Shown: piece after piece, positions 701-44,566 of the stretch | Layout: every line of letters begins with the position of its first letter | Numbering within the stretch: position 1 is the stretch's first letter | Virus record (IMG/VR): IMGVR_UViG_3300045988_158059 | Span: 1 to 64,000 of that record | Strand: one strand, 5' to 3' | Source of the DNA: a virus | DNA: 64,000 nt | Program-made: the position numbers and the translations under genes | Notes under the pieces: model-generated | What the model was told of the DNA's origin: nothing | Databases searched by the model: none | Seen by the model: only the letters and a program-made list of their open reading frames with translations

Positions 701-1109
701 TTAATTCCTCCGAATCTTTTTCATATTCAACTACAATTACATGTAATCCATATCTTCTTGCAGTATCAATCATATTTTTTGTACCTCGCGATTCACCATC
801 CCAAAATGCGATCAACGTACCAGAGCCTGATTCTGATGCAAATTTTGCCATTTCATTATTACGTCTAGGGCCAGCAGACTTTCCATAAACTCCCCATAAC
901 GCTTGAAATCTTATAACGGAGTAACCATTATCAAACGCATAACATTCACCAAGCCTATCTGCACCTTTTGCACCACCACTGATAACTCTAATTTGCTGAG
1001 TGTTATTAACTTGATTCTCTTCGATATAATCTGACACAGTTTTCTTAAGCAAACGATAATCATCAAAATCTCGTGAACCGGCTATAATAATATTCATCGC
1101 CTCGCTCAT
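684..1109 (-). CDS. DUF2493 / SLOG-superfamily Rossmann-fold protein (DprA/LOG-like)
   Basis: IIAGSRDF...ISGGAKGADRLGE matches the GSRDW...HGGA.GAD signature of the phage-associated DUF2493 proteins. Overlaps the upstream ORF by 17 nt. Confidence 0.55.
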   Translation of the reverse strand: MSEAMNIIIAGSRDFDDYRLLKKTVSDYIEENQVNNTQQIRVISGGAKGADRLGECYAFDNGYSVIRFQALWGVYGKSAGPRRNNEMAKFASESGSGTLIAFWDGESRGTKNMIDTARRYGLHVIVVEYEKDSEELNEQKR

Positions 1110-1606
1110 TCATCCAGCCTCCATAATTCCACATCATAATCTTTAAGTTCCTCTTCAATGATTTTATAAACCATTTCCCAGTCTGCTCCCCCTCTTCCAC
1201 AACCAATCTTATACGGAAGTGCTACTGAAGTTCTACAAAGATCTTTTCCTTCTAGTCCATTTTTTTCACGCCATACTCCAAAATGTTGCGAAATATATCT
1301 TAAACCATATCTAAAAGCTTCAAGATCTGTATACTGTTTACCATCATATCCATATTTATTTTGTGCGAATAAAGACAATACAATTTGACCTCTATCTTTC
1401 AATAAATATGCATCACACGTTCCGAGTAGTTCTTCCGACTCGAACTTACAAAACTCACAAAACTTTCTATAGTGTTTATAAATGCCTTCATCATAATCTC
1501 TTAATGCTTTAGCGACTCCAGTGTTCATTTCTCCTTGGCAGTTAACCTGATGAATTATAAAATCTGTCTTTGCATTAACGATATTACCTTCAATAATTTT
1601 AATCAT
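1106..1606 (-). CDS. macro domain protein, TARG1/OARD1-like ADP-ribose (1''-phosphate) hydrolase
   Basis: IIHQVNCQGEMNTGVAKAL and LPYKIGCGRGGADWEMV parallel the CISEDCRMGAGIA and MPRIGCGLDRLQWENV blocks of TARG1/OARD1. The start is placed at the internal MIKIIEG (ATG 1604-1606), preceded by an AGGAAAAG ribosome-binding site; the longest-ORF start would overlap the upstream gene. Confidence 0.75.
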   Translation of the reverse strand: MIKIIEGNIVNAKTDFIIHQVNCQGEMNTGVAKALRDYDEGIYKHYRKFCEFCKFESEELLGTCDAYLLKDRGQIVLSLFAQNKYGYDGKQYTDLEAFRYGLRYISQHFGVWREKNGLEGKDLCRTSVALPYKIGCGRGGADWEMVYKIIEEELKDYDVELWRLDE

Positions 1607-1616
1607 AAATCTTTTC

Positions 1617-2024
1617 CTATAAATCCTGAAATGTAAACTTCTCGCCACAGGAGCAAATCACTTCTCCAATAGTTCCGATTGATGTTGGTGTAAAGCACCA
1701 TGTAAGAGAGCCGCCTATGCAACCATGTCCCATTGCTCTCTGTTCCATAGTTTTCAAACCATGTTTCTCAGCATCATGTTTTAATTCCCACTCTCTGATT
1801 TTCTCTTGTTCTTTTTCTGAAATTGGAAATCCTCTATACAGATCCTCTTTCGCTTTTTTCAGTTCTGCTTCCATTCTCTGCATTTCAGAATCTTTATAAT
1901 GCTCATCTTTGAGCTTCTTGTTTTCTTCTTCTAAGTATTTAATTCGTTTTTCATAAGTATCTGCTTTATCAACAATCCCCTGACAAAGATCTGAAACTGA
2001 ATCCGTAAAATATGTACTACTCAT
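1617..2024 (-). CDS. hypothetical coiled-coil protein with C-terminal Cys/His cluster
   Basis: K/E-rich heptad region, then GHGCIGG...CSCGEKF, possibly Zn-binding. Located between the macro and KptA genes. Confidence 0.4.
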   Translation of the reverse strand: MSSTYFTDSVSDLCQGIVDKADTYEKRIKYLEEENKKLKDEHYKDSEMQRMEAELKKAKEDLYRGFPISEKEQEKIREWELKHDAEKHGLKTMEQRAMGHGCIGGSLTWCFTPTSIGTIGEVICSCGEKFTFQDL

Positions 2025-2026
2025 TT

Positions 2027-2566
2027 TTATACCTCCTTCATTAAATATTTCACTGGAACCCTTTTAGTCAGCCAAACTCCATTTTTAGATAAGTAAAATT
2101 TGTATCCATCTTTGTACATCTGTTCACTATTGATAGAATAAACAACTTCTTTACCATGTCTCTTGCCGACAGCTTTGGCGGTTTCAACATCTTTTGACAA
2201 ATGAACATATAAACGACTTTTAGGAATCAGTCCATTCTGATCAATAGACGCTATATATTTCTCGCCAGTTCCATGATAAAGAATTTTAGGTGGCTCTTTC
2301 TCTTCCAGTTCTACATCTACCGGAATTGAATGTCCCTGATTCGCTCTGATCAATGTCTTGTCATCATTGAAAGAATATCGCTGCTTATTGTCAGTCCGTA
2401 CAATTTCCTCTAAAAATTCTTTGTTGAATCCGGGATTGTTTTTAGCGATACCCTGAATCAGTTCTTCTACATTCGCCCAACCATGTTCATCTATAGTAAT
2501 ACCAATAACTTCAGGCTTATGTCTTAATATAAGACTTATATATCTACTAATACTTTGTAAATTCAT
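2027..2566 (-). CDS. kptA: RNA 2'-phosphotransferase KptA/Tpt1 family (NAD-dependent)
   Basis: [14 protein letters not shown]...GL..D..GW; RANQGHS; LYHGT; YVHLS. These are the hallmark Tpt1/KptA motifs. AGAGGAG ribosome-binding site upstream. Confidence 0.8.
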
Positions 2567-2581
2567 TCTCTTTACTCCTCT

Positions 2582-3055
2582 TTACTCCATAAATGATGAA
2601 ACGTGTACAGTTACAAAATCACTATGTGCACGAATATAATCCAAAGTTTTTACTGTATCCTCTACAATTGCAATCTGAGACGGCTTAAGCCCAAGCTTTT
2701 GTTGCAGCGTCTGAAGCACAGTAAGTTTTTCTGTCTTTTCTAAAGTAAAATAGATATTATCATCCGGAAGGCCGTAATTATCTTTGATAAAAGCTCTTTT
2801 GCCGGGGATCTCACTGAAAGGACTCTTTGAACAAGCATATACTTTGTCAATACCTTTCTTTTGAATGAACTCTTGCATTAATTTAATCGGACGCACATCT
2901 TTATACGGATTCTCACTGGAAGCTACAAGTCTATCCCATTCATCATCAGTCATACTATGACTTAATTCAGAGAACTCATACGGAGCAAGTACTCCATCTA
3001 CATCCATTACTACAATCACATCATCTTTTAATAAATAATCTGTAATTTTACTCAT
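2582..3055 (-). CDS. HAD-superfamily phosphatase (Pnkp-phosphatase-like or nucleotidase-like)
   Basis: N-terminal VVMDVDGVLA carries the HAD motif I DxDG(T/V). Size (157 aa) is comparable to a stand-alone polynucleotide 3'-phosphatase domain. Confidence 0.5.
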   Translation of the reverse strand: MSKITDYLLKDDVIVVMDVDGVLAPYEFSELSHSMTDDEWDRLVASSENPYKDVRPIKLMQEFIQKKGIDKVYACSKSPFSEIPGKRAFIKDNYGLPDDNIYFTLEKTEKLTVLQTLQQKLGLKPSQIAIVEDTVKTLDYIRAHSDFVTVHVSSFME

Positions 3056-4523
3056 CTTTGTTTCCTCCGTTTAATCTTTCTCTAATGTCTTCAAATGTTT
3101 CTTTATTGCAAGCTTTCCCATCTACAAATACGGTACTTAACGCTCCGTCACGAAATACATCATTATACCCGTCTTCACACTGTAATTCTCCATTGTCATC
3201 GTAATATATACAACAACACCCTTTATGAGATTTTTTCAAATGACTCGTATCGGTTTTTGGATCTTTATAGATCATAATTGGCTCGCCATTGACAATTCCA
3301 TAGGTGGCTTTCATAGCAATACCAAACATATCTCTGGTTACAACAACCATATGTCCATCGGGTTCTATAACTGCTGAGAAGCAAAATGCTCCGACTCCGA
3401 ATACGATATTGTTTGCAGCAAATCCTTTTTTCTTCAGTTTTTCCCATACCTGCTTTACATTATTAAGAGTACATCCGTCCCCATAAATAATTCCAATGTG
3501 CGGATCAAGCACTTTATATCCCTTGCTATTTACTGTTCCGCCGAATGTATTCCAAAGCTTTTCAATTGTCTCTACAGCAATTTCTACCATATCTCCGGAA
3601 TCTGGACGAACCAGAAGTTTACCATTATGCTGCATGATTTCTTTTTTACAAGCCGGAAGAATATTATCAATCATATTCCAGTAATCATAAGTGTCAGATA
3701 CCATACTGAAAGATGCATTAGGATATAGTTCCGTAAGTAGTCTTTTTACAAATGTGATTTCATCACCGTCTACTGCATAATTTGAAGCCATAACTGAATG
3801 TTCTGTTGATACAGCACCAATTCCGATTCTTTTAGTCCAACAGCAAGCATCATAATACGTATCTATATAATCAATGGCCGGAATTGTACTTGTCTTATCA
3901 AATGATAATAACCAAGCAGATGAACATCTTACTGCCTCTTCCATACAAGACATTCCTCTCATACCAAAGTCTGAGCAGGCCATTTCAGGTCTTAAAAAGT
4001 CATCACAGGTCATTTTATAGTAGTCGTTTGCAAGTTCTCTATACATATGACCAATTGTTGCATGAGCACATGGTTTCCAGAGTTCAACCTGCAGGATACA
4101 TTCTATCCACTGTACTACCCAAGCAAAATCTGGATGTGTGTTTGTAATTTCGATGCATGGGATGCCCATTGGTACTAATGTTCCCTCCGGAATAGCACGT
4201 ATCTGAATTGGAAGATAACCTAATTTATGAAGTTTCATAATAGGCTCTAGGTCATAACTATTTCCTAACTGTATATCAATACTGTATTTATATGTATGCT
4301 CAACTTCTACTGCTGTTAATTCAAAAAAGTTTTTATTAAAATAATCAATCAGATATTCTTCAATAAATGCCTGTAGACCAAAGAATACCATTTTGTTCTG
4401 ATTCTTAAGCATTGATCGTCGTGGAGTCCAGTAGGAAACAAGTTTTGTTAATCCTTTTGGATAGATTTTATTATGAATTTGTTTATATGTATCTGAAAGT
4501 AAAATTGCTAAAGTATTATTCAT
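3048..4523 (-). CDS. nadV: nicotinamide phosphoribosyltransferase family (NadV/NAMPT-like or Namat-like)
   Basis: N-terminal LLSDTYKQIHNKIYPKGLTKLVSYWTPR parallels the NAMPT block [29 protein letters not shown]. 491 aa, typical for the family. Confidence 0.8.
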   Translation of the reverse strand: MNNTLAILLSDTYKQIHNKIYPKGLTKLVSYWTPRRSMLKNQNKMVFFGLQAFIEEYLIDYFNKNFFELTAVEVEHTYKYSIDIQLGNSYDLEPIMKLHKLGYLPIQIRAIPEGTLVPMGIPCIEITNTHPDFAWVVQWIECILQVELWKPCAHATIGHMYRELANDYYKMTCDDFLRPEMACSDFGMRGMSCMEEAVRCSSAWLLSFDKTSTIPAIDYIDTYYDACCWTKRIGIGAVSTEHSVMASNYAVDGDEITFVKRLLTELYPNASFSMVSDTYDYWNMIDNILPACKKEIMQHNGKLLVRPDSGDMVEIAVETIEKLWNTFGGTVNSKGYKVLDPHIGIIYGDGCTLNNVKQVWEKLKKKGFAANNIVFGVGAFCFSAVIEPDGHMVVVTRDMFGIAMKATYGIVNGEPIMIYKDPKTDTSHLKKSHKGCCCIYYDDNGELQCEDGYNDVFRDGALSTVFVDGKACNKETFEDIRERLNGGNKDE

Positions 4524-4532
4524 AACTCCTCC

Positions 4533-4874
4533 TTAATCATTCGCTTCTTTTACAAGCTCGTCCACATTGTCTTTCAAATATTGACTGACTTTAATATAAC
4601 CATCTGTATTATTCTTCTCTGCAAATCCTCTGAATTTTACTCTGGCAGGATAAGCATTTGAAACTGATCCGTCTTCTTCGATATCTACACAAATCGCCCA
4701 TCCGAATGTATGTAAAATCATATTAATCCACCAGAGAAATCCGTTATTCTTAAATTCTTCCCATGATTTCTTTTCTACCATTTGAATTTTCTTATACTTA
4801 TCACATGTACTATTCGGACTGCAATAACATCTATCATGTTTATGTACACACGTTTCGCAAATCTGTGCTTTCAT
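4533..4874 (-). CDS. hypothetical Cys-rich protein
   Basis: CETCVHKHDRCYCSPNSTCDKY cluster, possibly a Zn-binding module. No family recognised. Confidence 0.35.
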   Translation of the reverse strand: MKAQICETCVHKHDRCYCSPNSTCDKYKKIQMVEKKSWEEFKNNGFLWWINMILHTFGWAICVDIEEDGSVSNAYPARVKFRGFAEKNNTDGYIKVSQYLKDNVDELVKEAND

Positions 4875-4952
4875 ATACTATTTCTCCATTCCTCTTGCAT
4901 TCTTTCATATTTCACATTGATTCTCCGAAAAAAGATTGCTTTTTTGCATGTA

Positions 4953-5255
4953 TTATTCTTCAAATTCTTTCTGTGCCACAACTCTACAACCATAAAGTCC
5001 TAACAAATCATGTAAATCAAACTCTTCAATATCGTTCTCATCAGCAATCTTATCGCTATGCACAAGAATTTCATCATCCATCTCGGCAGCATGAATTGTC
5101 TGTCTAATAATACTTAACATAGTTTCAACTGCATACTCATAACCTTTAAGATTATCTTCATTCATATCACTCGTAATAGTGTCTTTCATTTTATTCATCT
5201 GTTCCTCTAAAAACTTTGGAACATTACAAACTGTAAACATCATTTCTTCATTCAT
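4953..5255 (-). CDS. hypothetical acidic protein
   Basis: ORF with codon usage consistent with its neighbours. No motif. Confidence 0.3.
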   Translation of the reverse strand: MNEEMMFTVCNVPKFLEEQMNKMKDTITSDMNEDNLKGYEYAVETMLSIIRQTIHAAEMDDEILVHSDKIADENDIEEFDLHDLLGLYGCRVVAQKEFEE

Positions 5256-5718
5256 CCTCTACTGGTTCATATTTTTTAAACAATCTACCCATTGTCAAAT
5301 GATTAAATTTACCCAAATCCATTGCACAAGCAACAACATTATGAGGTGTAGAAGCCCCAATAAATTCACATAAATATTCTGTTAATGATGAATATTCAAT
5401 ATCTGTTGATATTTCTTCATCCCCAGGTTTTCTAATCCATCCAATCATTTTCTTATGATTAATTGTTATTTCTCCTTTATCAAGTGAATATAATACACTA
5501 CCATTGCTACTTCTCCACCAAGCATCTTCACCTGCGAATTTAACAAATTCTTCTTCTGACATATCTGAGATCCTATTAAATGTTTCATCATACATTAACC
5601 AAACTTCATATCTATTACTCTTGTATGTGCATATCGCTCCACATTCTTTTTGGTAATCTAATAAATCTAATAATACAAAAAAGAATTGTTCAAGATTATT
5701 TCCTAAAATTTCTTTCAT
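5248..5718 (-). CDS. hypothetical protein
   Basis: 156 aa ORF in the operon. No motif. Confidence 0.35.
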   Translation of the reverse strand: MKEILGNNLEQFFFVLLDLLDYQKECGAICTYKSNRYEVWLMYDETFNRISDMSEEEFVKFAGEDAWWRSSNGSVLYSLDKGEITINHKKMIGWIRKPGDEEISTDIEYSSLTEYLCEFIGASTPHNVVACAMDLGKFNHLTMGRLFKKYEPVEDE

Positions 5719-5766
5719 TTTCTCACCACCCTAAAGGAATAATAATTTGTTTCATAATATTCCTCC

Positions 5767-6570
5767 TTATCTAAACCTCTCAACCAGTTCAATCTTAGGA
5801 CTTTCCAGATTTGTCAAGATCGTATCTGTCGTATAAATCTTCTCAATCAGTCCATTGTTTTTCAGAAGCTCTCCTTCATAAATAGTGTTTTCACAATGAG
5901 TTACATAAAGATAAATCTTACCTACACCGGCCTCTTTCAGCTTTTTAGCACTATAATAAAAAGTACCACCTTTGCTGCAGATATCATCTACAATCAGGAT
6001 GTCTTTACCTGGTAGCTGATCAATTTCACCTGATAAATCTAAGCCTTTAATCTCTCCGGTCTCCCAATCTCTATTCTTAATACCGAAAGCATATGGAAGA
6101 TGTACTGCTGAAGAATATCGCTTCATGGATCCCGCATCCGGATAAAACATCATAAGGTTATTACTCGCAATCTTCTTAACAGCATCCTCAATCATTCGAT
6201 TCGGGGATTCTACATGTACTTTATTAAATAATGCGGCAGATACATCAGAATGCGGATCTAAAACTTCTACTCTTCCAAAATGTAATGAATTAATAGTCTG
6301 AGCAAAATATTTTAAAGTAAATAATTCGTTCTCATGCTTGACTCGATCCATACGTGCATCTGGGATATAAGGCATATATAAATTAGGCACTACTCTATGA
6401 TCCCAACAATATCTAGTAATATATTCAACTGCTGTTAACTCTTCCATTGATTCAAAGAACCATTCAATATTATCTCTGCACCATCCTCCAATAGGAGGAA
6501 TATCCTTAAATAAGAATGTTCCATCCGGATATTTATCAAGTTTGATTTCTACGCCGTTTAATTTAATCAT
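5767..6570 (-). CDS. ribose-phosphate pyrophosphokinase-like (Prs/Adps family, type I PRTase fold)
   Basis: DILIVDDICSKGGT is the PRPP-binding loop. N-terminal domain as in Prs but shortened (267 aa). Confidence 0.7.
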   Translation of the reverse strand: MIKLNGVEIKLDKYPDGTFLFKDIPPIGGWCRDNIEWFFESMEELTAVEYITRYCWDHRVVPNLYMPYIPDARMDRVKHENELFTLKYFAQTINSLHFGRVEVLDPHSDVSAALFNKVHVESPNRMIEDAVKKIASNNLMMFYPDAGSMKRYSSAVHLPYAFGIKNRDWETGEIKGLDLSGEIDQLPGKDILIVDDICSKGGTFYYSAKKLKEAGVGKIYLYVTHCENTIYEGELLKNNGLIEKIYTTDTILTNLESPKIELVERFR

Positions 6571-7668: not shown

Positions 7669-7680
7669 AAGTTATTCTCC

Positions 7681-8580: not shown

Positions 8581-8582
8581 AA

Positions 8583-9215: not shown

Positions 9216-9223
9216 TGTTTAAT

Positions 9224-32073: not shown

Positions 32074-32994
32074 TTACTTTGCTCCAGTCGGACCGAGAAT
32101 AATCTCTCGTGCGTAATTCATCGAAATAACGGAACAGAATTTTCCAAAATATTGTCCTGCTGCTCGAACTACTTCCGGTTCTTCTTTTACACAATCTGTA
32201 TAAATTCTGTTTGGAAGATTCCTTGCAACAGTTTTCATATCCTGTTCACACCACTCTGTTGGGATGATTCCTTCATCACGCATTTTATATAACTCTTTTT
32301 CAACTCTACGCCGCGTCACGACAGATTTTACAAGTTCCTGTGCTTCTGTTCGTTCTTGCAACTTTTGCGGATCCTGAATCTTTTTAACATGATTCATTTT
32401 TGCAACTTCATGAAATTTATCTCCAACGATTTTCACTACAAATGGTAATCTGCTATTCGGATCGTTTAATCTTGTTTGGTTCTTTATAACAATACCTTCT
32501 TGAATTTCTCCATATCCCGGATGATCCATAAAACTTTGTACATGTTCCCAACTGACAAACGGTCCAACATAAAATGTATTGATATATGTAAGTCCATGCG
32601 TTTCTGCAAATGCCTTTACTTCTGACTGAGGAAGATATTTTTCTTCCCTTACATCATAAATATCAAATACGTACCATTTCTTAGTATTTTCTGGATAATA
32701 AATAATCGCATTTCTTGCTCCAGACCATTCTCCAAATATTACATAGTCCGGAACGTCTTTATAATCTTCAGGATTTAACTCCTGCACATAATTATAAAAA
32801 CCATTTAATGTATTGTTCTGATTCAACGTATGTCTTCTGGAAAAAGCTACCATTTTGCCAGTCTCTGCATCATATCTAGCTGCTGCATTAGATCCATCAA
32901 ATTTTTCCTGGATAACAATTAAGTCACCCGGTACAAATCCATCTGCATATCCTTCTTTCAGACGTTGAATATCCATAAATTTCTTCTGCTCCAT
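32074..32994 (-). CDS. ATP-dependent RNA ligase (covalent nucleotidyltransferase, KxDG)
   Basis: VIQEKFDGSNAAARYD is the KxDG(S/T) motif I of RNA/DNA ligases. Size and layout fit the Rnl-type ligases. Confidence 0.6.
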   Translation of the reverse strand: MEQKKFMDIQRLKEGYADGFVPGDLIVIQEKFDGSNAAARYDAETGKMVAFSRRHTLNQNNTLNGFYNYVQELNPEDYKDVPDYVIFGEWSGARNAIIYYPENTKKWYVFDIYDVREEKYLPQSEVKAFAETHGLTYINTFYVGPFVSWEHVQSFMDHPGYGEIQEGIVIKNQTRLNDPNSRLPFVVKIVGDKFHEVAKMNHVKKIQDPQKLQERTEAQELVKSVVTRRRVEKELYKMRDEGIIPTEWCEQDMKTVARNLPNRIYTDCVKEEPEVVRAAGQYFGKFCSVISMNYAREIILGPTGAK

Positions 32995-33501: not shown

Positions 33502-33578
33502 GTTTACTGCCTCCTTAAATATACATTTCAGTAGTTACTATTTTCTTCTGTAATGATCCGCGCGACATCATTACAAAT

Positions 33579-33648
33579 ATGACACAATTGGATTCGAACC
33601 AATATTTCAGCTTAAAAAGCCACGTTCTTTCCGTTAGACTATATGTCA
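33579..33648 (-). tRNA. tRNA-Lys(UUU) candidate (weak stems)
   Basis: Reverse complement reads TGACATATAGTCTAACGGAAAGAACGTGGCTTTTTAAGCTGAAATATTGGTTCGAATCCAATTGTGTCA. Acceptor TGACATA/TGTGTCA, perfect T-arm ATTGG-TTCGAAT-CCAAT, anticodon loop TTTTTAA. The D stem and anticodon stem are poor. Confidence 0.45.
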
Positions 33649-33717
33649 TCTTTTTTTTACATGCATGACCTGTCGTACTGCAGTCACAACAGGATTATGT
33701 GTACTTATTCTTTCTCC

Positions 33718-34044
33718 TTATCCATTATAATTTTCTCCATAGATTGCGATTTCTGGTTTGCCATTTTCATCTAATACGTAATATGGTGTAATGCCACCAA
33801 TGCCACCATAACGGTCTGAACCTTGTACTACATATACAATTTTAGTGGTTTTATAATATACAAAATATTGACTATATCGACTAAACCCATTACTTGATAC
33901 GATTTGTATTTCCTTAATTTCAATAAATTGACCGAATGATTGAACTTTTTCTCCATTGTCATTTATCTCTTTGTCACCACATCCAGTAAACGAAAATGCC
34001 AATCCCGATACAAGCAATCCAATTAATAGTTTCTTAATTTTCAT
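33718..34044 (-). CDS. putative lipoprotein
   Basis: Signal peptide with FTGCGDK lipobox. Confidence 0.5.
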   Translation of the reverse strand: MKIKKLLIGLLVSGLAFSFTGCGDKEINDNGEKVQSFGQFIEIKEIQIVSSNGFSRYSQYFVYYKTTKIVYVVQGSDRYGGIGGITPYYVLDENGKPEIAIYGENYNG

Positions 34045-34084
34045 TCTGTCACCTCTCGAATCTCACATTCCATCGAATCACTTA

Positions 34085-34282
34085 TTATCCTATTAAAAAC
34101 ATCCCAGTAATAAATAATGAGAGTAATATAAACATAAGAATAAAATCACCGATAGCCAAAACAAGTCTCTTTCTATCATCAAGAATATCGAGTCTTGAAA
34201 AAGACATACCAATTGTAAAAATTAATGATAATAGTATTCCTATCAATAATGATCCTATATAAGATTTCATATCTAACCTCAC
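34085..34282 (-). CDS. small two-TM membrane protein
   Basis: 65 aa, two hydrophobic helices. Confidence 0.4.
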   Translation of the reverse strand: MRLDMKSYIGSLLIGILLSLIFTIGMSFSRLDILDDRKRLVLAIGDFILMFILLSLFITGMFLIG

Positions 34283-35058
34283 ATTTCAACAATTCTGTAT
34301 AATTGTCTATTCAGGTAATGTCCAAGTAAATAATCATTATCAAGTCCAGTTCCGTGATAAAATTCTTCCGCAATTCCACCACCTATAGCACATAACGTAT
34401 CCATGTCACACTTTAACGAAAATACATTTCGCAAGAAACTTTCATAATCATCACTTTCCAGAAAACATCTTATTGCAACAGGTACACTTCCTTGACAAAT
34501 TTCATTCCACTGATATGTCTTTCTATAGTCTTCAATTTTATATTCAACACTATATTTGTAATCATCTTTTGGATAGTATTTCTTCACATATTCATAGATT
34601 TCTGCTTTTGTAACACCTGTTCTTGCCATATAAATACACATTGCCGTTGCAACCGCCCCTTTAATTCCTTCTGGATGATTATGTGTACACTCAGCAGACT
34701 TTGTAGCCCATTCGATAACTTCTTTTTCTGTATTAAAATGTTCTCCAATATAAGAACATCTCATTGCAGATCCATTACCGCAACTTCCATATGCAGTTTC
34801 ATCATCGTATCTTAACCACGTTTCAAAATTATTTCCATATCCTGCATTTGGATATTTTCTTCCCCATTCTCTATATGAATCTGAGAAAGATTTATTATTA
34901 ATAATTGCTAATTTAGCAGCAAGTGTCATTACAGTATCATCTGTAAAATAACATCTATCAGTAAATAACTTACAATTCTTCCAATCTAAATCAATTGGTC
35001 TACCAAATTCATATTGTGAACCTGCAATATCACCTAAGATTGCACCAACGATAGCCAT
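34279..35058 (-). CDS. ADP-ribosylglycohydrolase (ARH/DraG family)
   Basis: GAILGDIAGSQYEF, FTDDTVMT, GNGSAMR and THNHPEG match the ARH motifs (GDALG, TDDT, GNG(A/S)(L/A)MR, THxHP). Confidence 0.8.
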   Translation of the reverse strand: MAIVGAILGDIAGSQYEFGRPIDLDWKNCKLFTDRCYFTDDTVMTLAAKLAIINNKSFSDSYREWGRKYPNAGYGNNFETWLRYDDETAYGSCGNGSAMRCSYIGEHFNTEKEVIEWATKSAECTHNHPEGIKGAVATAMCIYMARTGVTKAEIYEYVKKYYPKDDYKYSVEYKIEDYRKTYQWNEICQGSVPVAIRCFLESDDYESFLRNVFSLKCDMDTLCAIGGGIAEEFYHGTGLDNDYLLGHYLNRQLYRIVEM

Positions 35059-35152
35059 AATTTAATCTCCTTTATTTTAAATTATTATTTTTACGGGATT
35101 ATTTATAAGAATTTTATATCTCTCCTTTCATTTTTCTTTTAATGGAAACTCT

Positions 35153-35226
35153 GGGACTCGAACCCAGGACCGACCGGTTATGAGCCGGTTGCTCTAACCA
35201 ACTGAGCTAAGTTTCCATGTAGTGGG
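35153..35226 (-). tRNA. tRNA-Met(CAU) (elongator Met, or Ile2 if lysidine-modified)
   Basis: Reverse complement GGAAACTTAGCTCAGTTGGTTAGAGCAACCGGCTCATAACCGGTCGGTCCTGGGTTCGAGTCCCAGAGTTTCCA. All four arms canonical; anticodon CAT. Confidence 0.85.
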
Positions 35227-35658: not shown

Positions 35659-35738
35659 TACGGATAGTGGGATTCGAACCCACACGATTTCTCCGAAGGG
35701 TTTGAGCCTTCTACGTCTGCCAGTTCCGTCATATCCGC
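35659..35738 (-). tRNA. tRNA-Leu(CAA), type II (long variable arm)
   Basis: Reverse complement GCGGATATGACGGAACTGGCAGACGTAGAAGGCTCAAACCCTTCGGAGAAATCGTGTGGGTTCGAATCCCACTATCCGTA. 3-bp D stem, anticodon stem GAAGG/CCTTC with loop CTCAAAC, ~13 nt variable arm, T-arm GTGGG-TTCGAAT-CCCAC. Confidence 0.75.
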
Positions 35739-35905: not shown

Positions 35906-37024
35906 TTATACAGAAAGATTATAATGAAGTCCCTTTTCTTCTTTTCTTGCAAAAACGATACGATCAATTTTAATATTTTCGTATTTTTTCTTTTCTTCTT
36001 TTGTAAGATCCGCATAGTCTTCATCCGGAATAATTTCAACATCTTTTCCATCAACAAAATCAATGTGTCTGTCAAAATCATATCTTACATCAACACCAGA
36101 AAATTTTGTATAGAACCATTTTCCATCTATTGTAAAATATAAACTATGATTAGAAGTCTTATCAAACAAGTCAAGAGTTTTTTCTTCTGTATCTTTTTTA
36201 CCATCTTTAGTATACAAAGTAGCTATATAAACAGTATTATTTATATGAAGGATATTCATATCTTTAATTGCCTCTTGAAATTGTAATCCTGTATTAAGCT
36301 CAAATGCGATAGCTCTTAAACAATCATAATTTAAGCTGACTCTTTTAGAAAATGCAATTACCTTACTAATTTCTCCATAATACTCTTTATGTAACTTGTC
36401 TCTCATATATTCTGTGATTTCAGAATCTGTCGGATAATCAAATCTAAAATGATAATGAAATCTTCCAGGTCTATTTACCAAATAATCACTCAGAGTATTA
36501 AGATTATTACAAGTAATAACATATAACTTTTTCCCTTGAGCTAATCCATCAAATAATGTAAGCAGCTCTGTTTGTGGATTAGCCATACCATCAGCAGCTT
36601 TAATATTACCAAATGTTTTATCAAACTCATCAAACATTACTAATACTTCCTGTTCAATTTCTTCAATAAAATTAGCAATTCCAGGGATATATGTATCAAC
36701 AATAATTACTGGTAATCCTTTTTTTACAGCTTCTACAGCAAGAATCTTAGAAAATAAAGATTTGCCAATTCCTTTGGCTCCAGATAAGATCACGCCAAGA
36801 TTTTTATTGAAATTTGGAAAAGCATTTAATACTTTATTTACTTTTTCCATGTGCACACCGTATATTTTATCTTCATTGATCTCAATATCAGCATGTTTCT
36901 CTAAATAAAATCCTGTCATCTGTGAACATCTGATAGAATAAATTTGTGCCGGAAGTTGATTATGTGTTACAAGATCATCTCCGTAGATTCTAAAAGTGGA
37001 ACCTGTACTAATAATTTTACTCAT
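35906..37024 (-). CDS. AAA+ ATPase
   Basis: ILSGAKGIGKS Walker A, VLVMFDEFDK Walker B, VNRPGRF sensor 2 / Arg finger. Confidence 0.65.
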   Translation of the reverse strand: MSKIISTGSTFRIYGDDLVTHNQLPAQIYSIRCSQMTGFYLEKHADIEINEDKIYGVHMEKVNKVLNAFPNFNKNLGVILSGAKGIGKSLFSKILAVEAVKKGLPVIIVDTYIPGIANFIEEIEQEVLVMFDEFDKTFGNIKAADGMANPQTELLTLFDGLAQGKKLYVITCNNLNTLSDYLVNRPGRFHYHFRFDYPTDSEITEYMRDKLHKEYYGEISKVIAFSKRVSLNYDCLRAIAFELNTGLQFQEAIKDMNILHINNTVYIATLYTKDGKKDTEEKTLDLFDKTSNHSLYFTIDGKWFYTKFSGVDVRYDFDRHIDFVDGKDVEIIPDEDYADLTKEEKKKYENIKIDRIVFARKEEKGLHYNLSV

Positions 37025-37103
37025 TTTTATCTCCTTTTTGTATAATTAAATTATATTTCTCTGCAATTCGGCTGGAGTATATTTGTATAAAATACTTGCC
37101 AAA

Positions 37104-37188
37104 CGGCGGTAGTGGGATTCGAACCCACACGAGCTACTGCTCAATAGAGTCAAAGTCTATTATGTCTAGCCAATTTCATCATACCGCT
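37104..37188 (-). tRNA. atypical tRNA with long variable arm and apparent UUG anticodon
   Basis: Reverse complement AGCGGTATGATGAAATTGGCTAGACATAATAGACTTTGACTCTATTGAGCAGTAGCTCGTGTGGGTTCGAATCCCACTACCGCCG. A1:C72 mismatch, 3-bp D stem, anticodon stem ATAGA/TCTAT with loop CTTTGAC, ~15 nt variable stem-loop GAGC-AGTA-GCTC, perfect T-arm. Confidence 0.55.
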
Positions 37189-37285
37189 ACATTCATTGTT
37201 TGTATAATTAAATTTCTTTCTTCTTTTTATTTAGCACAGGGAGCTTTCACTCCTCTGTGCTGTTGTCATCCTTGACTATGTATTT

Positions 37286-37964: not shown

Positions 37965-39311
37965 TTACTCAATGATCTTAAATGATACATCAGTACGTCT
38001 ATTCATTGCGCGATGTTCATCAGTGTCATTATCAACAACAGGATTGCTGGATCCATTTCCAACTACTACAATACGTCCGTTAGAAATTCCATTCATAACA
38101 AAATAGTTTTTAACAGCTTCTGCTCTTTGTAAAGACAACTTCTGATTATACTCGTCTTCAGGATCTGATTCCGGATTAGGGTCTGTATTTCCTGCAATTT
38201 CAATGATTGCACCGTCAAGTACCTTTGCAATGTCAATAAACTTATTAAGTTCTTTAGATGCTGCAGCAGAATCAGAGAATTTTGCCGTATTCTGAATAAA
38301 TGTAACAGATGCTTTACCCTGTAATAAAGCTTCAGTATCCTGAATTTCCTTTTTATTATCCTCTGTAACCTTTACAGTATTTGTATTAGACACTTTCGTT
38401 GCACTAAATTTATCTGAAATAGCATTAATATATGTATCATCAAAAATACTATTAACAAGATCAGCATTTACAGACTCACCAATTGATGTCCATACGTTAC
38501 ACATATCTGAATAAATTGTCTTTGCAGTTCCATTTAACAGATCTAAATTATCTTTCCATGTTGTCAGTTTTGCAGACTCTGTATTTGCTACAATATCTTC
38601 ATCTGATGCAGTATTGAACATAGGCATTACTTCACGGATTGCATTAAATTCTGTATTATACATATCTGCAGCTTCCAGAGATCCCTGGATAAATTTCTCC
38701 ACTACATCTGCATGTGCTTCTGCAAATTTCTTATCAAACAGAATTCCATCCATAACAAGATTTGAAGAACTTGCAGTGCTAAATAATACATGTGCGTCTG
38801 TCATATTCTTTGCCTGAGTCAGGTATGGTTCCCAGGTTGCTGCAACATCAATCTGACCGGCAAAAAATGCTTTTGCTGCATCATCTGGTGTTGAGAACAA
38901 TACAAGATTATCAATAATCTTTGCTTTGGCTTTATTAGAAAGATCAGAATTATTTACAAACCATACTACAAGTGTTTGAGCTTCAGAGAATTCTGGTACA
39001 CCAATTTTAGCATTTACAAGATCATTTACATTCTGAATAGAAGACTTCGCAATAATACCGTCACCACCATTTGAGTAATTTGTAATATACGGCATCACCA
39101 CTTCTTTTCCGGCATCAGTGAATTTCTTAGATAAGAATGCAGTTCTGTTGATTGTATAACCTGCAGCGTTCAGATCTCCTTTAATCAGAGCATTACTTGA
39201 TTGTGTTGCGTCGTTAATAACATTAATATTTACTTTTACGCCAAGTTTATCATAGATGGAACCTGACTGAGTTGTTAAGCCGCCATTAGCGTCAATAATG
39301 GATTTCCACAT
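37965..39311 (-). CDS. ABC-transporter substrate-binding domain (SsuA/NMT1-like) fused to a C-terminal OmpA-like domain; 3' portion of a split gene
   Basis: GVKVNINVINDATQSSNALIKGDLNAAG and IDVAATWEPY resemble the SsuA/TauA/NMT1 family. The C-terminus LSLQRAEAVKNYF...NRRTDVSF is OmpA/MotB-like. No signal peptide, and the first beta-strand of the binding fold is missing. Confidence 0.55.
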   Translation of the reverse strand: MWKSIIDANGGLTTQSGSIYDKLGVKVNINVINDATQSSNALIKGDLNAAGYTINRTAFLSKKFTDAGKEVVMPYITNYSNGGDGIIAKSSIQNVNDLVNAKIGVPEFSEAQTLVVWFVNNSDLSNKAKAKIIDNLVLFSTPDDAAKAFFAGQIDVAATWEPYLTQAKNMTDAHVLFSTASSSNLVMDGILFDKKFAEAHADVVEKFIQGSLEAADMYNTEFNAIREVMPMFNTASDEDIVANTESAKLTTWKDNLDLLNGTAKTIYSDMCNVWTSIGESVNADLVNSIFDDTYINAISDKFSATKVSNTNTVKVTEDNKKEIQDTEALLQGKASVTFIQNTAKFSDSAAASKELNKFIDIAKVLDGAIIEIAGNTDPNPESDPEDEYNQKLSLQRAEAVKNYFVMNGISNGRIVVVGNGSSNPVVDNDTDEHRAMNRRTDVSFKIIE

Positions 39312-39313
39312 TA

Positions 39314-40162
39314 CTATTGATTCAGTTCGTTACGCTGAACTGTTGATTTCCGTATAGGATATTTTATATTTGGATTATGCCAACTGCCACCATTATTAAT
39401 TCTATAAATCTGAGTAACAGCTCGACCATATAATTTAGCAATATACTTCATAGGAATGCTAGGATCTTCTAACAATTTAATAATTTCTTCTAATTCATCA
39501 TGAGTTAATCCTAATTCTCTGATAGGATATTCATCGTTTTCATCATAATATGTAACACCTTTATTAATGTTTAAAATTACATATCTTTCTACTTTAAACA
39601 TTCTAGCAATATAGTCTATACTATAAAAGCCATCTCGTAACATTTTTTTGATTAATTTAATTTTTTCATGATTTATAGATGGACATATTAAAGGTTCTCT
39701 GATAGGATAAGTGATATCATTTTTTCTCCAAGCTATTCCGGTATTAACATTTCGAATAGTTTTTATTGATACATTATACTTTTCGGCAAGCTTATCAAAT
39801 TCAACGTTCGTTTCTTTTAAATCTTTCATCAATAAATCAACCTGCTGTTGTGTTAACTTACTTTGCGGATTATTTTCTCCAGAACTATCTTGCCCACCAT
39901 TTTGAATATTATATCCGAACTCTTTCTCATTACTGCGATATAATTTAATATATTCCTTTTCTTTTGTATTATAATCTTCTCCGAAATATAATGTTTCTAC
40001 CGAAAAATTTTCCCATCCATATTTATGTATTGCATTATAGATAGGATGATTCATGCGTTTATCATGCCGATGCTCTTTAATACGTCTTTCTAAATTATTA
40101 GTTTGTCCTATATAAATCTTATGATTTATGTTATTCTCTATTTTGTATACATATTTCTCCAA
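39314..40162 (-). CDS. GIY-YIG homing endonuclease
   Basis: KYVYKIENNINHKIYIGQTNNLERRIKEH is the GIY-(10)-YIG...R...E/H motif, followed by C-terminal DNA-binding repeats. TTG start with an AGGAGAA ribosome-binding site. Confidence 0.85.
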   Translation of the reverse strand: MEKYVYKIENNINHKIYIGQTNNLERRIKEHRHDKRMNHPIYNAIHKYGWENFSVETLYFGEDYNTKEKEYIKLYRSNEKEFGYNIQNGGQDSSGENNPQSKLTQQQVDLLMKDLKETNVEFDKLAEKYNVSIKTIRNVNTGIAWRKNDITYPIREPLICPSINHEKIKLIKKMLRDGFYSIDYIARMFKVERYVILNINKGVTYYDENDEYPIRELGLTHDELEEIIKLLEDPSIPMKYIAKLYGRAVTQIYRINNGGSWHNPNIKYPIRKSTVQRNELNQ

Positions 40163-42125: not shown

Positions 42126-42737
42126 CTAAAATTTCAATATTTCATCACACATTATCTTTGCTTCTGATTCACTGTGTGTGACCATGATCACAGTATTATC
42201 AAGTAACATATGCAAATCCATAATTAACAATTGCATATTACTTCGTGTCTCAGCATCCAGCGCTGACAACGGTTCATCCATTAAAAGAATCTTTGGTTTT
42301 GCAAATAACGTCCTTGCTAACGCAAGTCGCTGTTTCATGCCTCCAGATAACTGCTTAGGATATTTATTTTCGTTTCCATTCAAACCAACTAAATAAAGCA
42401 TCTTCTTAGCTGCTTCTATATCTTCTGGTTCTATATGGCCTTTAACTTTTTTAGCAATTAGTATATTGTCAAGACAATTTAACCAATCAAAAGAAGTATA
42501 GTTCTGATGCATCATATATACTTCATTTTTACTTGCTTTTGTAACCGGATTATTATCTATTATAATTTCTCCAGATAACGGTTTGATTAATCCTGCAACA
42601 GTCCTTAACAAAGTTGTCTTGCCGCATCCAGATTCTCCAAGGATCCCGTAGATCTTATTATCAAAATTATAATTAAACCCAGATAAAAGTGGTTTATCTC
42701 TGCTGTATCCTGTGTATAAATCATGAATTTCAATCAT
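42126..42737 (-). CDS. ABC transporter ATP-binding protein
   Basis: GESGCGKTT Walker A, LSGGMKQRLALAR signature, LLMDEPLSALD Walker B, H-loop. Confidence 0.85.
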   Translation of the reverse strand: MIEIHDLYTGYSRDKPLLSGFNYNFDNKIYGILGESGCGKTTLLRTVAGLIKPLSGEIIIDNNPVTKASKNEVYMMHQNYTSFDWLNCLDNILIAKKVKGHIEPEDIEAAKKMLYLVGLNGNENKYPKQLSGGMKQRLALARTLFAKPKILLMDEPLSALDAETRSNMQLLIMDLHMLLDNTVIMVTHSESEAKIMCDEILKF

Positions 42738-44071: not shown

Positions 44072-44566
44072 TTATTTAACAAACATCCAGTCTTCTGCGA
44101 GCATATCCGACTGGGTAGCAAGCCATCCCATCTGTACGCCAGATGTTCCAACAAAAGCGATGGCTTTATTTCCGATTGCGTCATGCTCACAATTTACAAT
44201 CTCATTATCGGCAGTCTTATAAGAAATCCCAGTGGCAAGCTGAATGTACTGTTTCTTTCCATTCCAGCCTTTACGTGCCACTTTAAATCCTCTTTTCAGG
44301 TACTTAATCGCTTCTCCGAATGAGAATGTTGCTTCTCCACCAAGTATTGGGCAGTTCCGACTATCCGCATAAACCCACTCATCGGAAAGAATATTCTGAA
44401 GCGTATACTCCACATTCTGTGTTTCTCTTATATCCAGACAGCCGCCATCTTTTGTGTACATAAGGATTGTCTGGGATTCTTCATCCCACCACCAATAACC
44501 CGCCCATGACGGAAGTTTTACTGGAATTCCAGATTTCATTTCTTCAAATGCTTCTTTAAATTTCAT
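44072..44566 (-). CDS. tandem DUF2829 protein (Tad2-like)
   Basis: Two repeats. The second, FSFGEAIKYLKRGFKVARKGWNGKKQYIQL...WLATQSDMLAEDWMFV, matches the DUF2829 pattern as I recall it (..GEAL.ALK.GKKV.RKGWNG...SQ.D.LAEDWE.V). The first, MKFKEAFEEMKSG...LQNILSDEWVYA, is more diverged. Confidence 0.65.
   Translation of the reverse strand: MKFKEAFEEMKSGIPVKLPSWAGYWWWDEESQTILMYTKDGGCLDIRETQNVEYTLQNILSDEWVYADSRNCPILGGEATFSFGEAIKYLKRGFKVARKGWNGKKQYIQLATGISYKTADNEIVNCEHDAIGNKAIAFVGTSGVQMGWLATQSDMLAEDWMFVK

Follow-up and report, generated by a model that had tools for sequence, protein, structure and literature searches.

ADP-ribosylation and NAD+ chemistry are central to the conflict between phages and bacteria, as exemplified by DarT, CmdT, Thoeris, NADase effectors and NARP pathways. 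An intact and strongly conserved gene of the ARH/DraG family of ADP-ribosylglycohydrolases is present in a large gut phage, located among tRNA genes in the 64,000-nt stretch of DNA analyzed here (hereafter the window), which raises the question of what its product would remove ADP-ribose from. Our literature searches turned up no experiments on an ARH from a phage.

Family, fold and active site of the phage ARH

The gene, its ribosome-binding site and the codons of its predicted catalytic and metal-binding residues are located as follows.

34279..35058, (-) strand: CDS of the ARH-family ADP-ribosylglycohydrolase, including stop (259 aa; ATG start, TGA stop)
35067..35071, (-) strand: ARH ribosome-binding site AGGAG, 8 nt before the start codon (read from the sequence)
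35008..35010, (-) strand: codon of E17, which corresponds to catalytic residue Glu41 in human ARH3 (GDxxGxxxE; HMMER alignment)
34936..34944, (-) strand: codons of T39-D40-D41, equivalent to the metal-site motif T76-D77-D78 of ARH3 (HMMER alignment)
34396..34407, (-) strand: codons of D218-M-D220-T221, equivalent to the second metal-site motif D314-x-D316-T317 of ARH3 (HMMER alignment)

An earlier note on this DNA had assigned the product to the ARH family, citing four motifs. All four are present in this ORF (GDIAGS at residues 9-14, TDDT at 39-42, GNGSAMR at 94-100 and THNHP at 125-129), as is CDMDT at 217-221. The family assignment is far beyond chance, with matches to Pfam PF03747 (ADP_ribosyl_GH; E=2.1e-28, 100.2 bits against a gathering cut-off of 26.2), in which residues 2-230 align to profile positions 2-275 of 287, and to PHROG 6572 'ADP-ribosylglycohydrolase' (E=1.6e-44). 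The label 'DraG/ARH' given at the time is appropriate for the superfamily, which PF03747 defines, but not for DraG proper, since the protein scores 33 bits against the TIGR02662 equivalog model (cut-off 337.05) and a DraT/nif context is absent. PADLOC defence models gave no match to the ARH.

Conservation was judged on an 18-sequence family alignment and on HMMER alignment to ARH3 chains. The family alignment shows no variation at E17, D40, D41, H126 (in the TH motif), D218, D220 and T221, T39 is kept in at least 90% of the sequences, and the ADP-ribose-binding motifs GNGSAMR (94-100) and T125-H126 are conserved relative to both ARH3 and the family. The earlier note had named missing binuclear metal residues, together with a lack of glycohydrolase activity, as grounds for rejecting its assignment. 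All metal ligands are present by alignment, so that the first of these grounds does not refute it. An AlphaFold (AF2) model has the all-α ARH fold with 14 helices (pLDDT 93.3, pTM 0.92), and Foldseek matches it with a probability of 1.00 to ARH3, MJ1187, DraG and Tri1 (TM 0.66-0.77). As read from these alignments, 34279-35058 encodes an ARH/DraG-superfamily protein with a predicted complete binuclear-metal site. The gene is under strong purifying selection (dN/dS = 0.05-0.16).

By analogy with the family, T39, D40, D41, D218, D220 and T221 would hold two Mg/Mn ions that position the distal ribose of ADP-ribose, and E17 would activate a water molecule that cuts the C1''-X bond, yielding free ADP-ribose and an unmodified acceptor. 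We regard the protein as very probably an active ARH hydrolase.

Its closest solved structures by sequence (HMMER) are ARH3 proteins (E=3e-12). ARH3 (ADPRS/ADPRHL2), the vertebrate hydrolase of Ser-ADP-ribose, poly(ADP-ribose) and O-acetyl-ADPR, is also the reported best structure match (Foldseek probability 1.0, TM ~0.72), and its catalytic Glu, both metal-site motifs, GNGxAMR and the His of the TH motif all align with the phage ARH. However, identity is only 20-25%, and the phage protein (259 aa versus ~350-360) is missing ~90 residues of peripheral helices. DraG shares the fold, a similar size class and the binuclear Mn site, and has the top TM-score of the list (0.77, 2woe), but it is 19% identical, its equivalog model failed, and the phage has no DraT, nitrogenase or PII context. 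Tri1 (PDB 6dre), which provides immunity to the T6SS transferase Tre1, is an ARH-fold eraser with a TM of 0.73 to the phage protein, although identity is 18% and a search with a PF03496-type query places no cognate transferase gene next to the phage ARH. Annotated phage ADP-ribosylglycohydrolases, such as those of Porphyromonas phage005, Bacteroides phage Versailles and Aeromonas phage Aeh1, belong to the same family (PHROG 6572), but members from cultured phages are at most 45% identical to the window ARH, and BFVD viral models are 13-19% identical.

A mobile cassette among tRNA genes, and NAD-related genes elsewhere in the window

The region around the ARH gene contains the following features.

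33702..35111, (-) strand: 1.4-kb cassette comprising ARH, a small membrane ORF and a 108-aa lipoprotein (contig alignment)
34085..34282, (-) strand: small hydrophobic ORF (~61-65 aa), directly 3' of ARH
33718..34044, (-) strand: predicted lipoprotein of 108 aa with lipobox LAFSFTGC, co-transferred with ARH
33578..33649, (-) strand: tRNA-Lys(UUU), downstream of the cassette
35142..35217, (-) strand: tRNA-Met(CAU), 84 nt upstream of the ARH start
35659-35738, (-) strand: tRNA-Leu(CAA) (ARAGORN and Rfam)
37103-37189, (-) strand: tRNA-Gln(UUG) (ARAGORN and Rfam)
32074..32994, (-) strand: ATP-dependent RNA ligase with an Rnl3-like nucleotidyltransferase domain (PF09414, E=2e-26; PHROG 548)

The four tRNA genes, all on the (-) strand, were found by both ARAGORN and Rfam, and the Rfam scan detected nothing else. 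ARH lies between tRNA-Lys and tRNA-Met, which bears out its description as embedded in a tRNA cluster. Besides the tRNA genes, its surroundings in the window comprise small ORFs, the RNA ligase and an AAA ATPase, with neither DraT nor nitrogenase genes. The ligase gene, whose product matches PAB1020 and MthRnl in the PDB, is 1.3 kb downstream of ARH. A promoter-like site (35272-35245) precedes tRNA-Met, but such sites are no more numerous in the region than expected by chance, and promoter and terminator scans generally gave no excess either.

The cassette is the sole long stretch of window positions 24000-45000 that aligns to two other contigs (L013 and L014), with 88-91% nucleotide identity, and beyond it these contigs share with the window only an 82-nt match (~81%) at the tRNA-Met gene. 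Similarly, the 176-kb phage genome MT835469 encodes an ARH that is 95.8% identical, whereas the remaining matching window proteins are only 24-60% identical, and the Tpt1, macro, NARP1-like and RNA-ligase proteins of the window find no homologue in the whole 176 kb. A lipoprotein copy (60% identical) adjoins ARH in MT835469. ARH copies of the cassette, at 95.8-99% aa identity, are placed in phage backbones in which no RNA ligase, Tpt1 or RlaP is near the cassette (none in 176 kb for MT835469). The small hydrophobic ORF, which probably starts at the ATG at 34270, 8 nt past the ARH stop, has no Pfam or PHROG match, and contig L018 has a copy of the cassette without it. These findings show that the ARH gene moves on an accessory cassette common to otherwise unrelated phages.

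Elsewhere, the window encodes further proteins with a likely role in NAD or ADP-ribose (ADPR) conflicts.

1106..1648, (-) strand: macro-domain protein of the TARG1/DarG/Poa1p class, 33 kb from ARH
2027..2566, (-) strand: RNA 2'-phosphotransferase Tpt1/KptA (PF01885, E=3e-48; NF002014, 261 bits against 239)
3048..6570, (-) strand: NARP1-like pair, with Namat/NAMPT-like (3048-4523) and Adps/Prs-like (5767-6570) genes
44072..44566, (-) strand: Tad2-like (Thoeris anti-defence 2) domain protein (PF11195, E=8e-24)

Tpt1/KptA depends on NAD and is able to ADP-ribosylate the ends of nucleic acids; no other gene of the window has a transferase fold, and it is 32 kb from ARH. A nicotinamidase-like protein is also encoded by this phage. 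The presence of the Tad2-like gene indicates that the phage targets ADPR-based immunity, and together with the NARP1-like, macro and nicotinamidase-like genes it makes such immunity clearly a pressure on the phage.

Downstream of the Namat-like gene come first Tpt1 and then, at 1.4 kb, the macro gene. Its product has no Pfam match below E=0.01 and best resembles DarG macro domains (PDB 5m31, E=3.8e-6; PADLOC DarG, 4.9e-15; NCBIfam DarG, 2e-12, which is under the model cut-off), ahead of Poa1p (6lfu, E=0.004), whereas its match to TARG1 is very weak (E ~0.9). Relatives are found in 616 phage records, labelled macro, Appr-1-p processing or phosphatase. The phage thus possesses a second, unrelated ADP-ribose-processing fold, as the earlier note had proposed, but it is 33 kb away. 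In the NARP1 pathway, ADP-ribose is consumed in Adps- and Namat-mediated NAD+ reconstitution, and macro proteins beside Adps/Namat pairs have been shown to be ADPR-1''-phosphate phosphatases (Adpp) (bioRxiv 10.64898/2026.01.28.702374). By analogy, the macro protein of the window may be such a phosphatase. Because macro proteins in this setting have proved to be Adpp, the proposal that the phage has two de-ADP-ribosylating enzymes is not established, and the statement that it must reverse ADP-ribosylation of both protein and nucleic acid was conjecture, the sequence revealing no substrate.

Neighbourhoods of related ARH genes

The window ARH belongs to a compact clade present in at least 579 IMG/VR contigs, which is abundant in uncultured phages and rare in cultured ones. 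Across phage loci its neighbourhoods are variable, with many small ORFs. We surveyed viral neighbourhoods in 42 ARH groups by unbiased clustering of the neighbouring genes. In just five of these groups is there a tRNA gene no more than 10 kb from ARH, and the tRNA embedding is therefore peculiar to the lineage of the window's phage rather than general. The neighbour families ranked highest were RlaP (a nucleotidyltransferase), the CCA-adding enzyme and a linked protein with a palm domain. An RNA-end-repair gene is found within 10 kb of ARH in 16 of the 42 groups and is adjacent (within 350 bp) in eight, in at least five distinct gene orders that include RlaP-ARH-CCA. A rank test gave z=-3.0, which overstates independence because the groups are phylogenetically related. 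It is chiefly in the clade of the window protein that this association is seen, and no pairing with a transferase occurs there. In addition, an NAD-dependent DNA ligase directly adjoins ARH in three groups. The palm-domain protein was considered as a possible transferase and rejected, its model being polymerase-like and not ART-like.

In the reciprocal survey, ARH was within 10 kb in only five of 80 viral loci holding a RlaP/palm-protein/CCA module, fewer than the loci with NARP1-like genes (12) or macro genes (nine). We therefore rejected the idea that ARH is a core part of a RlaP/CCA repair operon. Because so few modules hold ARH, these counts suggest that ARH and RNA-repair genes share accessory islands rather than forming a dedicated partnership. 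Just one surveyed locus has Tpt1 and ARH within 10 kb of each other. ARH never directly adjoins NARP1 genes in the surveyed loci; the distance is 28-31 kb in the window, while one locus (L059) has NARP1-like and macro genes 7-9.5 kb away from ARH.

The picture is different in a sister viral clade (41-46% identity), in which ARH adjoins exoenzyme-type ADP-ribosyltransferases (PF03496) that are either fused to a head protein or stand-alone. Four ARH groups adjoin a head-protein fusion with a PF03496 domain, next to the portal gene, and one has a stand-alone PF03496-type transferase immediately upstream. A tblastn search with a query of this type detected no PF03496-type transferase in either the 64-kb window or the 176-kb MT835469.

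Bacterial relatives of the window ARH are 42-48% identical, belong to the same compact subfamily and come from many phyla. Among 80 genomes, some of them adjoin, sporadically, MacroD-type proteins and NrtR/AraR-type Nudix regulators, and none shows linkage to RNA repair. This is the arrangement of the bacterial ARG-centred systems, in which an ARG, a macro protein and Nudix/WYL regulators are predicted to strip ADP-ribose from host proteins (Iyer et al. 2022, PMC9503650, section 3.8) and which have the same compact ARH subfamily and MacroD/Nudix neighbours. In contrast, the ARH of the phage stands alone on its mobile cassette and has no regulator or macro protein beside it. Fusions in 83 multidomain relatives (DUF6508, SseB, HD_4, ARPP-1, macro, dUTPase and others) are uninformative for substrate, and none involves an RNA-repair domain. 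The cassette, the abundance of the clade, the proximity to tRNA-end-repair genes, the transferase pairing in the sister clade and the bacterial macro/Nudix neighbours are new in this analysis.

Candidate substrates

The explanation we favour is that the ARH, carried by a cassette that recombines between unrelated gut phages, acts as an eraser, most likely early in infection. The ADP-ribose would be placed on a macromolecule needed by the phage, either by a host ADP-ribosyltransferase (toxin or defence) or by a transferase injected by a competing phage. A counter-defence role in erasing a macromolecular adduct is fairly probable, and protection from a hostile ADP-ribosyltransferase, by analogy with Tri1, is the functional model that we prefer. 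In favour of this explanation are the family, fold and active site, the strong purifying selection, the mobile and accessory character of the gene, and the investment of the phage in NAD/ADPR conflicts (Tad2-like, the NARP1-like pair, macro, Tpt1 and nicotinamidase-like). We rank protein above RNA ends, and RNA ends above small ADPR derivatives, as the likely substrate. It is quite possible, and we propose tentatively, that the acceptor is protein, with Arg-type N-glycosidic or Ser-type O-glycosidic adducts on side chains as the most probable bonds. The freed ADP-ribose could feed the phage's own NARP1-like pathway for recycling.

A protein substrate is favoured because nearly all characterized ARH enzymes (DraG, ARH1, ARH3 and Tri1) act on protein. 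The acidic pI (~5) of all members of the window ARH's clade, which ill suits an RNA-binding surface, is a weak pointer in the same direction, and it is weakened further because ARH3 shares the acidic pI and yet works in vitro on RNA ends. Protein is also favoured because the sister viral clade pairs with PF03496 transferases, because the bacterial relatives resemble predicted ARG-centred systems, and because phage ARG domains, which are much scarcer than their macro and NADAR counterparts, have been argued to prefer macromolecular adducts (PMC9503650). Counting against it, the sole recurrent neighbours of the window clade are RNA-end-repair genes, ARH3, the top match in sequence and structure alike, takes non-protein substrates too, and tblastn with a PF03496-type query identified no transferase partner in the window. 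A protein-ADP-ribose eraser would be an ordinary, expected counter-defence enzyme. Knowledge of the substrate would reveal which ADP-ribosylation attack these phages meet, for which the window clade, being compact, readily expressed, abundant, mobile and strongly selected, is a good entry point.

Alternatively, the ARH might work on nucleic acid alongside tRNA or RNA repair, stripping Tpt1/KptA-capped 5'- or 3'-phosphate ends or ADP-ribosylated tRNA, after which ligases and end-repair enzymes would restore tRNA following host attack. This seems rather unlikely to us, and a version in which the ARH belongs to a tRNA-repair toolkit, clearing ADP-ribose from tRNA or from the phosphate ends of cleaved tRNA and leaving RlaP, the CCA enzyme, Thg1 and RNA ligase to complete the repair, is doubtful. 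If true, it would join ADP-ribose removal to the known tRNA-repair steps and imply that gut Firmicutes ADP-ribosylate tRNA or 'cap' broken RNA ends against phage repair, a defence layer that to our knowledge has not been described. Both the location of ARH, which has tRNA-Lys and tRNA-Met on either side and an Rnl3-like RNA ligase 1.3 kb away, and the survey of the 42 groups argue for such a role, with RlaP, the CCA-adding enzyme and the palm protein at the top of the neighbour list, RNA-end genes within 10 kb in 16 groups and within 350 bp in eight (z=-3.0), a link concentrated in the window clade, and DNA ligase adjoining ARH in three groups. There is also biochemical precedent, as both macro enzymes and the ARH-like SCO5809 of Streptomyces coelicolor clear phosphate-linked ADP-ribose that a Tpt1/KptA enzyme has put on RNA ends (PMC11833690), and a T6SS transferase modifies the tRNA anticodon loop (PMC13617354). 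SCO5809, likened here by enzyme description, acts on the product of Tpt1/KptA, and the window phage encodes both Tpt1 and an RNA ligase, but its RNA-end activity is modest next to PARG, and PARG alone reversed 2'-OH RNA ADP-ribosylation (Lu et al., PMC11833690). Moreover, the reverse test is weak (ARH in 5/80 repair modules), the compared groups are related by phylogeny, so that their independence is overstated, the cassette also occurs in backbones with no nearby RNA ligase, Tpt1 or RlaP, and the protein is acidic, with no RNA-repair fusions among its 83 multidomain relatives. A general role in clearing by-products of the phage's own Tpt1 was rejected, because the 95.8% identical ARH of MT835469 occurs in a genome where the window's Tpt1 finds no homologue and Tpt1 is near ARH in one surveyed locus only. 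We found no published link between ARH and RNA repair; an earlier mention in Burroughs & Aravind 2016, on RNA-repair systems, is possible.

It is unlikely that the ARH is a small-molecule hydrolase that cleaves the C1''-linked group of soluble ADPR derivatives, such as the Thoeris signals 2'cADPR/3'cADPR (at their ribose-ribose bond), His-ADPR, ADPR-1''-phosphate or O-acetyl-ADPR, thereby silencing immune signals and supplying linear ADPR to NARP1-like NAD+ rebuilding. The Tad2-like, Adps/Namat-like, macro and nicotinamidase-like genes of the phage fit such a role, as does a compact acidic protein for a small ligand, and locus L059 brings ARH near NARP1-like and macro genes. Furthermore, ARH3 cuts the ribose-ribose O-glycosidic bonds of poly(ADP-ribose) as well as O-acetyl-ADPR (PMC9503650), and an unrelated phage glycosidase, RyDEP, was shown to cut this very ribose-ribose bond in cADPR signals and to feed NARP1 (bioRxiv 10.64898/2026.05.28.727677). 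However, ARH never adjoins NARP1 genes in the surveyed loci (28-31 kb apart in the window), MT835469 has the cassette but no homologue of the window's NARP1-like proteins, the rarity of phage ARG domains relative to macro and NADAR domains has been taken as an argument for macromolecular adducts (PMC9503650), and both the sister-clade transferase pairing and the RNA-repair neighbours would be left unexplained. An antidote to, or regulator of, a possibly virion-packaged transferase of the phage itself, in the style of DraT/DraG or Tre1/Tri1, which would shield phage or host proteins from that transferase until the right time, is very unlikely. It would account for the four groups beside a PF03496 head-protein fusion and the one with a stand-alone transferase upstream, and ART-ARG pairs have been reported in Aeromonas phages (Iyer et al., PMC9503650), but the surveyed pairs all fall in the other major clade, no homologue of their PF03496-type transferase was detected in the 64-kb window and the 176-kb MT835469, and the only transferase fold in the window is Tpt1, 32 kb off. 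Finally, although some phage immune-evasion families hold enzymes and sponges alike (bioRxiv 10.64898/2026.05.28.727677), we consider it most improbable that the ARH is a non-catalytic ADPR-binding sponge or a decaying gene, given the catalytic and metal residues conserved across the clade in the 18-sequence alignment, the low dN/dS and the full-length ORF with its strong ribosome-binding site.

The ARH gene, its active site and its setting

The ADP-ribosylglycohydrolase (ARH) gene at 34279-35058 (-) is an ORF of 259 aa, and sequence reading places an AGGAG ribosome-binding site 8 nt 5' of its start. As assessed by a Pfam profile search, the protein matches PF03747 (ADP-ribosylglycohydrolase) far over the curated cut-off (E=2.1e-28). 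It also matches PHROG 6572 (E=1.6e-44), and its nearest relatives with a solved structure are ARH3 proteins (E=3e-12). It is not a DraG in the strict sense, scoring 33 bits with an equivalog model whose cut-off is 337. Phage ARH domains are already known and annotated (Iyer et al. 2022, PMC9503650; also PHROG 6572).

The motifs quoted in the earlier note are all found in the ORF, i.e. GDIAGS (residues 9-14), TDDT (39-42), GNGSAMR (94-100), and THNHP (125-129). A HMMER alignment to human ARH3, with ARH3 numbers calculated via its chain offset, pairs the following residues, whose catalytic, metal-site, and TH-motif roles are those of the ARH3 literature.

E17: ARH3 catalytic Glu41
T39-D40-D41: ARH3 T76-D77-D78
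H126: ARH3 TH-motif His182
D218-x-D220-T221: ARH3 D314-x-D316-T317

These residues are invariant or almost so in an alignment of 18 sequences (62-82% identity). The AlphaFold2 model is confident (pLDDT 93.3, pTM 0.92), and Foldseek superposes it on ARH3, MJ1187, DraG, and the immunity protein Tri1 (probability 1.0, TM 0.66-0.77). Since the metal and catalytic residues are kept in both alignments, the fold is confident and dN/dS is 0.05-0.16 (pairwise, against relatives of 78-99% identity), the loss of metal-site residues that, by the earlier note, would speak against the assignment is not what we found. Judging from sequence and model, the protein is very probably an active enzyme.

The placement of ARH in a tRNA cluster is borne out by ARAGORN and Rfam, which agree on four minus-strand genes (Lys, Met, Leu, and Gln; 33.6-37.2 kb), with tRNA-Met 84 nt before ARH. 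The tRNA-Gln(UUG) gene (37103-37189, -), of 87 nt and with the anticodon at position 37, is longer than usual for tRNA-Gln; tRNA-Leu(CAA) has 80 nt. Between these two, in the same gene string, lies a 372-aa AAA+ ATPase (35906-37024, -; PHROG 2376, E=2e-112).

The ARH cassette and its distribution

ARH belongs to a short segment that is common to the window and to contigs L013 and L014, at 88-91% nt identity.

33702-35111 (-): ARH cassette (ARH, small membrane ORF, 108-aa lipoprotein)

Outside this segment the two contigs share with the window only an 82-nt match (∼81%) at the tRNA-Met gene, which in them lies ∼4.4 kb from ARH. The cassette is 88-93% nt identical among the window, L013, L014, a third contig (L018) whose copy is without the small ORF, and the 176-kb phage genome MT835469 (33842-35583), while the remaining proteins of these phages are 24-57% identical or absent, which indicates, at the sequence level, recent horizontal exchange. 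ARH is thus, on these comparisons, carried by a small cassette that recombines among unrelated phages. In MT835469, ARH is 95.8% identical and the adjoining lipoprotein 60%, and five further window proteins have matches of just 24-57%. Because this genome has the ARH and no homologue of the window Tpt1, macro, Namat-like, Adps-like, or RNA-ligase proteins, ARH function is independent of those genes.

The family is very large: word-sharing matches at E<1e-5 number >8000, and clustering at 50% identity leaves 1170 representatives with E<1e-30, many of which carry fusions to unrelated domains. The closest 120 matches (62-93% identical) are nearly all full-length, at ∼259 aa, and clade members are all acidic (pI ∼5). 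At least 579 viral contigs of IMG/VR carry a relative, and most of these contigs are 100-250 kb long. Only eight GenBank phage records have one, at ≤45% identity except for one uncultured faecal phage, and among species-representative bacterial genomes the best match (70%) is a Lachnospiraceae MAG contig, the others, across many phyla, reaching ≤54%. Because close GenBank phage and bacterial matches are so few, the clade at ≥60% identity essentially consists of uncultured gut phages or prophages, which agrees with the report that viral ARG domains are much rarer than macro domains (Iyer et al. 2022, PMC9503650).

Genomic neighbours of ARH

To describe the neighbourhood, 92 ARH-bearing viral loci (10 kb each side of the match) were collapsed to 42 groups (ARH ≥85% identity) and all ORFs, called by a crude longest-ORF rule, were clustered into families by BLAST single linkage. 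Within 2.5 kb, the commonest families are RlaP nucleotidyltransferase (10 groups) and CCA-adding enzyme (8); a 318-aa palm-domain protein (X), positioned between these two, is found in 5/42. A DNA N6/N4-methyltransferase family also ranks among the top neighbours (7 groups, but at 5 kb only), followed by NAD-dependent DNA ligase, PNK, Thg1, and RNA ligases. Gene orders vary: Thg1-RlaP-X-CCA-ARH, ARH-RlaP-X-CCA, RlaP-ARH-CCA, RlaP-CCA-phosphoesterase-x-ARH, Rnl1-PNK-sigma-ARH, and Thg1-ARH. An RNA-end-repair-type gene lies ≤10 kb from ARH in 16 of the 42 groups and ≤350 bp in 8, and ARH is nearer to such genes than same-locus genes are (mean rank 0.28, z=-3.0, a value that overstates independence because groups are related by descent). 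In a neighbour-joining tree, these links are concentrated in one clade, and the window protein belongs to it. tRNA genes are ≤10 kb from ARH in just 5/42 groups.

A reverse survey collected 80 viral loci with the 318-aa protein as start.

Genes ≤10 kb from the 318-aa protein (80 loci)
RlaP: 77
CCA-adding enzyme: ∼60
NARP1-like genes: 12
macro genes: 9
ARH: 5

With ARH at only 5/80 module loci, it is an occasional passenger beside the repair module and not a core part of it; these islands also house several other NAD/ADPR-related accessory genes. Against the searched literature, which did not cover the 2016 Burroughs & Aravind survey, both this partial, one-sided link of ARH to tRNA-end-repair operons and the size and mobility of the compact gut-phage clade appear new.

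A second major clade includes ARHs adjacent to PF03496 exoenzyme-type ADP-ribosyltransferases, the one family used as query in our transferase searches. In four loci (L079, L085, L088, and L089), ∼1 kb from ARH and next to the portal gene, a head protein of 830-860 aa carries the transferase as its C-terminal domain; in L091/L092 a stand-alone 199-aa transferase gene is immediately upstream (9174-9773 in L092). Neighbourhoods of bacterial ARH relatives show no linkage to RNA-repair genes. In a few bacterial genomes each (L136, L145, L146, and others), a relative of 42-48% identity has as neighbours a macro protein of the MacroD type and a Nudix transcription regulator of the NrtR/AraR type, matching the ARG-centred systems predicted to remove ADP-ribose from invader-modified host proteins (Iyer et al. 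2022, PMC9503650).

The window itself has an NAD/ADP-ribose gene cluster spanning 684-9889 (-).

684-1109 (-): SLOG/YspA protein
1106-1648 (-): macro protein, TARG1/DarG/Poa1p class
2027-2566 (-): Tpt1/KptA, over the NCBIfam equivalog cut-off
2582-3055 (-): HAD hydrolase
3048-4523 (-): Namat/NAMPT-like
5767-6570 (-): Adps/Prs-like
6571-7668 (-): PurA-like (adenylosuccinate-synthetase-like)
9224-9889 (-): nicotinamidase-like isochorismatase
44072-44566 (-), outside the cluster: Tad2-like (Thoeris anti-defence 2), 164 aa, PF11195 E=8e-24

The cluster resembles the NARP1-AP pathway (Adps, Namat, and macro phosphatase), but with Tpt1 inserted. The TARG1-like macro protein of the earlier note is present, but it may be no macromolecular eraser at all, because Osterman et al. 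(bioRxiv 10.64898/2026.01.28.702374) identified Poa1p-like macro proteins encoded in NARP1 operons as phosphatases of ADPR-1''-phosphate. The Tad2-like protein could act as a sponge for the immune signals cADPR/His-ADPR. Plainly, the phage invests in countering NAD/ADPR-based immunity.

The proposed acceptor and other genes of the window

ARH is very probably an active two-metal hydrolase that frees ADP-ribose from a C1''-linked acceptor. Carried on its mobile accessory cassette, it probably works as an "eraser" in counter-defence. Among acceptor classes, protein side chains rank as likeliest, a tentative preference that follows from the known biochemistry of the family, the pairing of the sister clade with transferases, the bacterial ARG/macro/Nudix context, and the acidic surface. 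The main rival, appreciably less probable, is that ARH takes ADP-ribose off RNA or tRNA ends jointly with repair enzymes. The window setting among tRNA genes and an RNA ligase, and the forward context statistics, speak for it, as do the findings that ARH-like and macro enzymes undo phosphate-linked RNA ADP-ribosylation made by Tpt1/KptA (PMC11833690) and that a transferase toxin targets tRNA directly (PMC13617354), but the reciprocal survey (ARH at 5/80 module loci) and the presence of the cassette in phages without such repair genes argue against it.

Somewhat less probable again, and reasoned by analogy, ARH might hydrolyse soluble ADPR derivatives, e.g. 2'/3'cADPR, supplying the NARP1-like pathway; the RyDEP glycosidase, although unrelated to ARH, would then be analogous. 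It is unlikely that ARH is an antidote to a transferase of the phage's own, and most unlikely of all that this protein, with its retained metal-site residues, is non-catalytic.

Elsewhere, the window encodes an ABC importer, unusual in a phage, comprising an NMT1/THI5-like substrate-binding domain fused to an OmpA-like C terminus, an ABC ATPase, and a permease (37965-39311, 42126-42737, and 42730-43476, -). It also has a GIY-YIG homing-endonuclease-like gene with HTH domains (39314-40162, -) and, as predicted by sequence reading alone, a 725-aa NrdD-like anaerobic ribonucleotide reductase with its activase (14186-16890, -).
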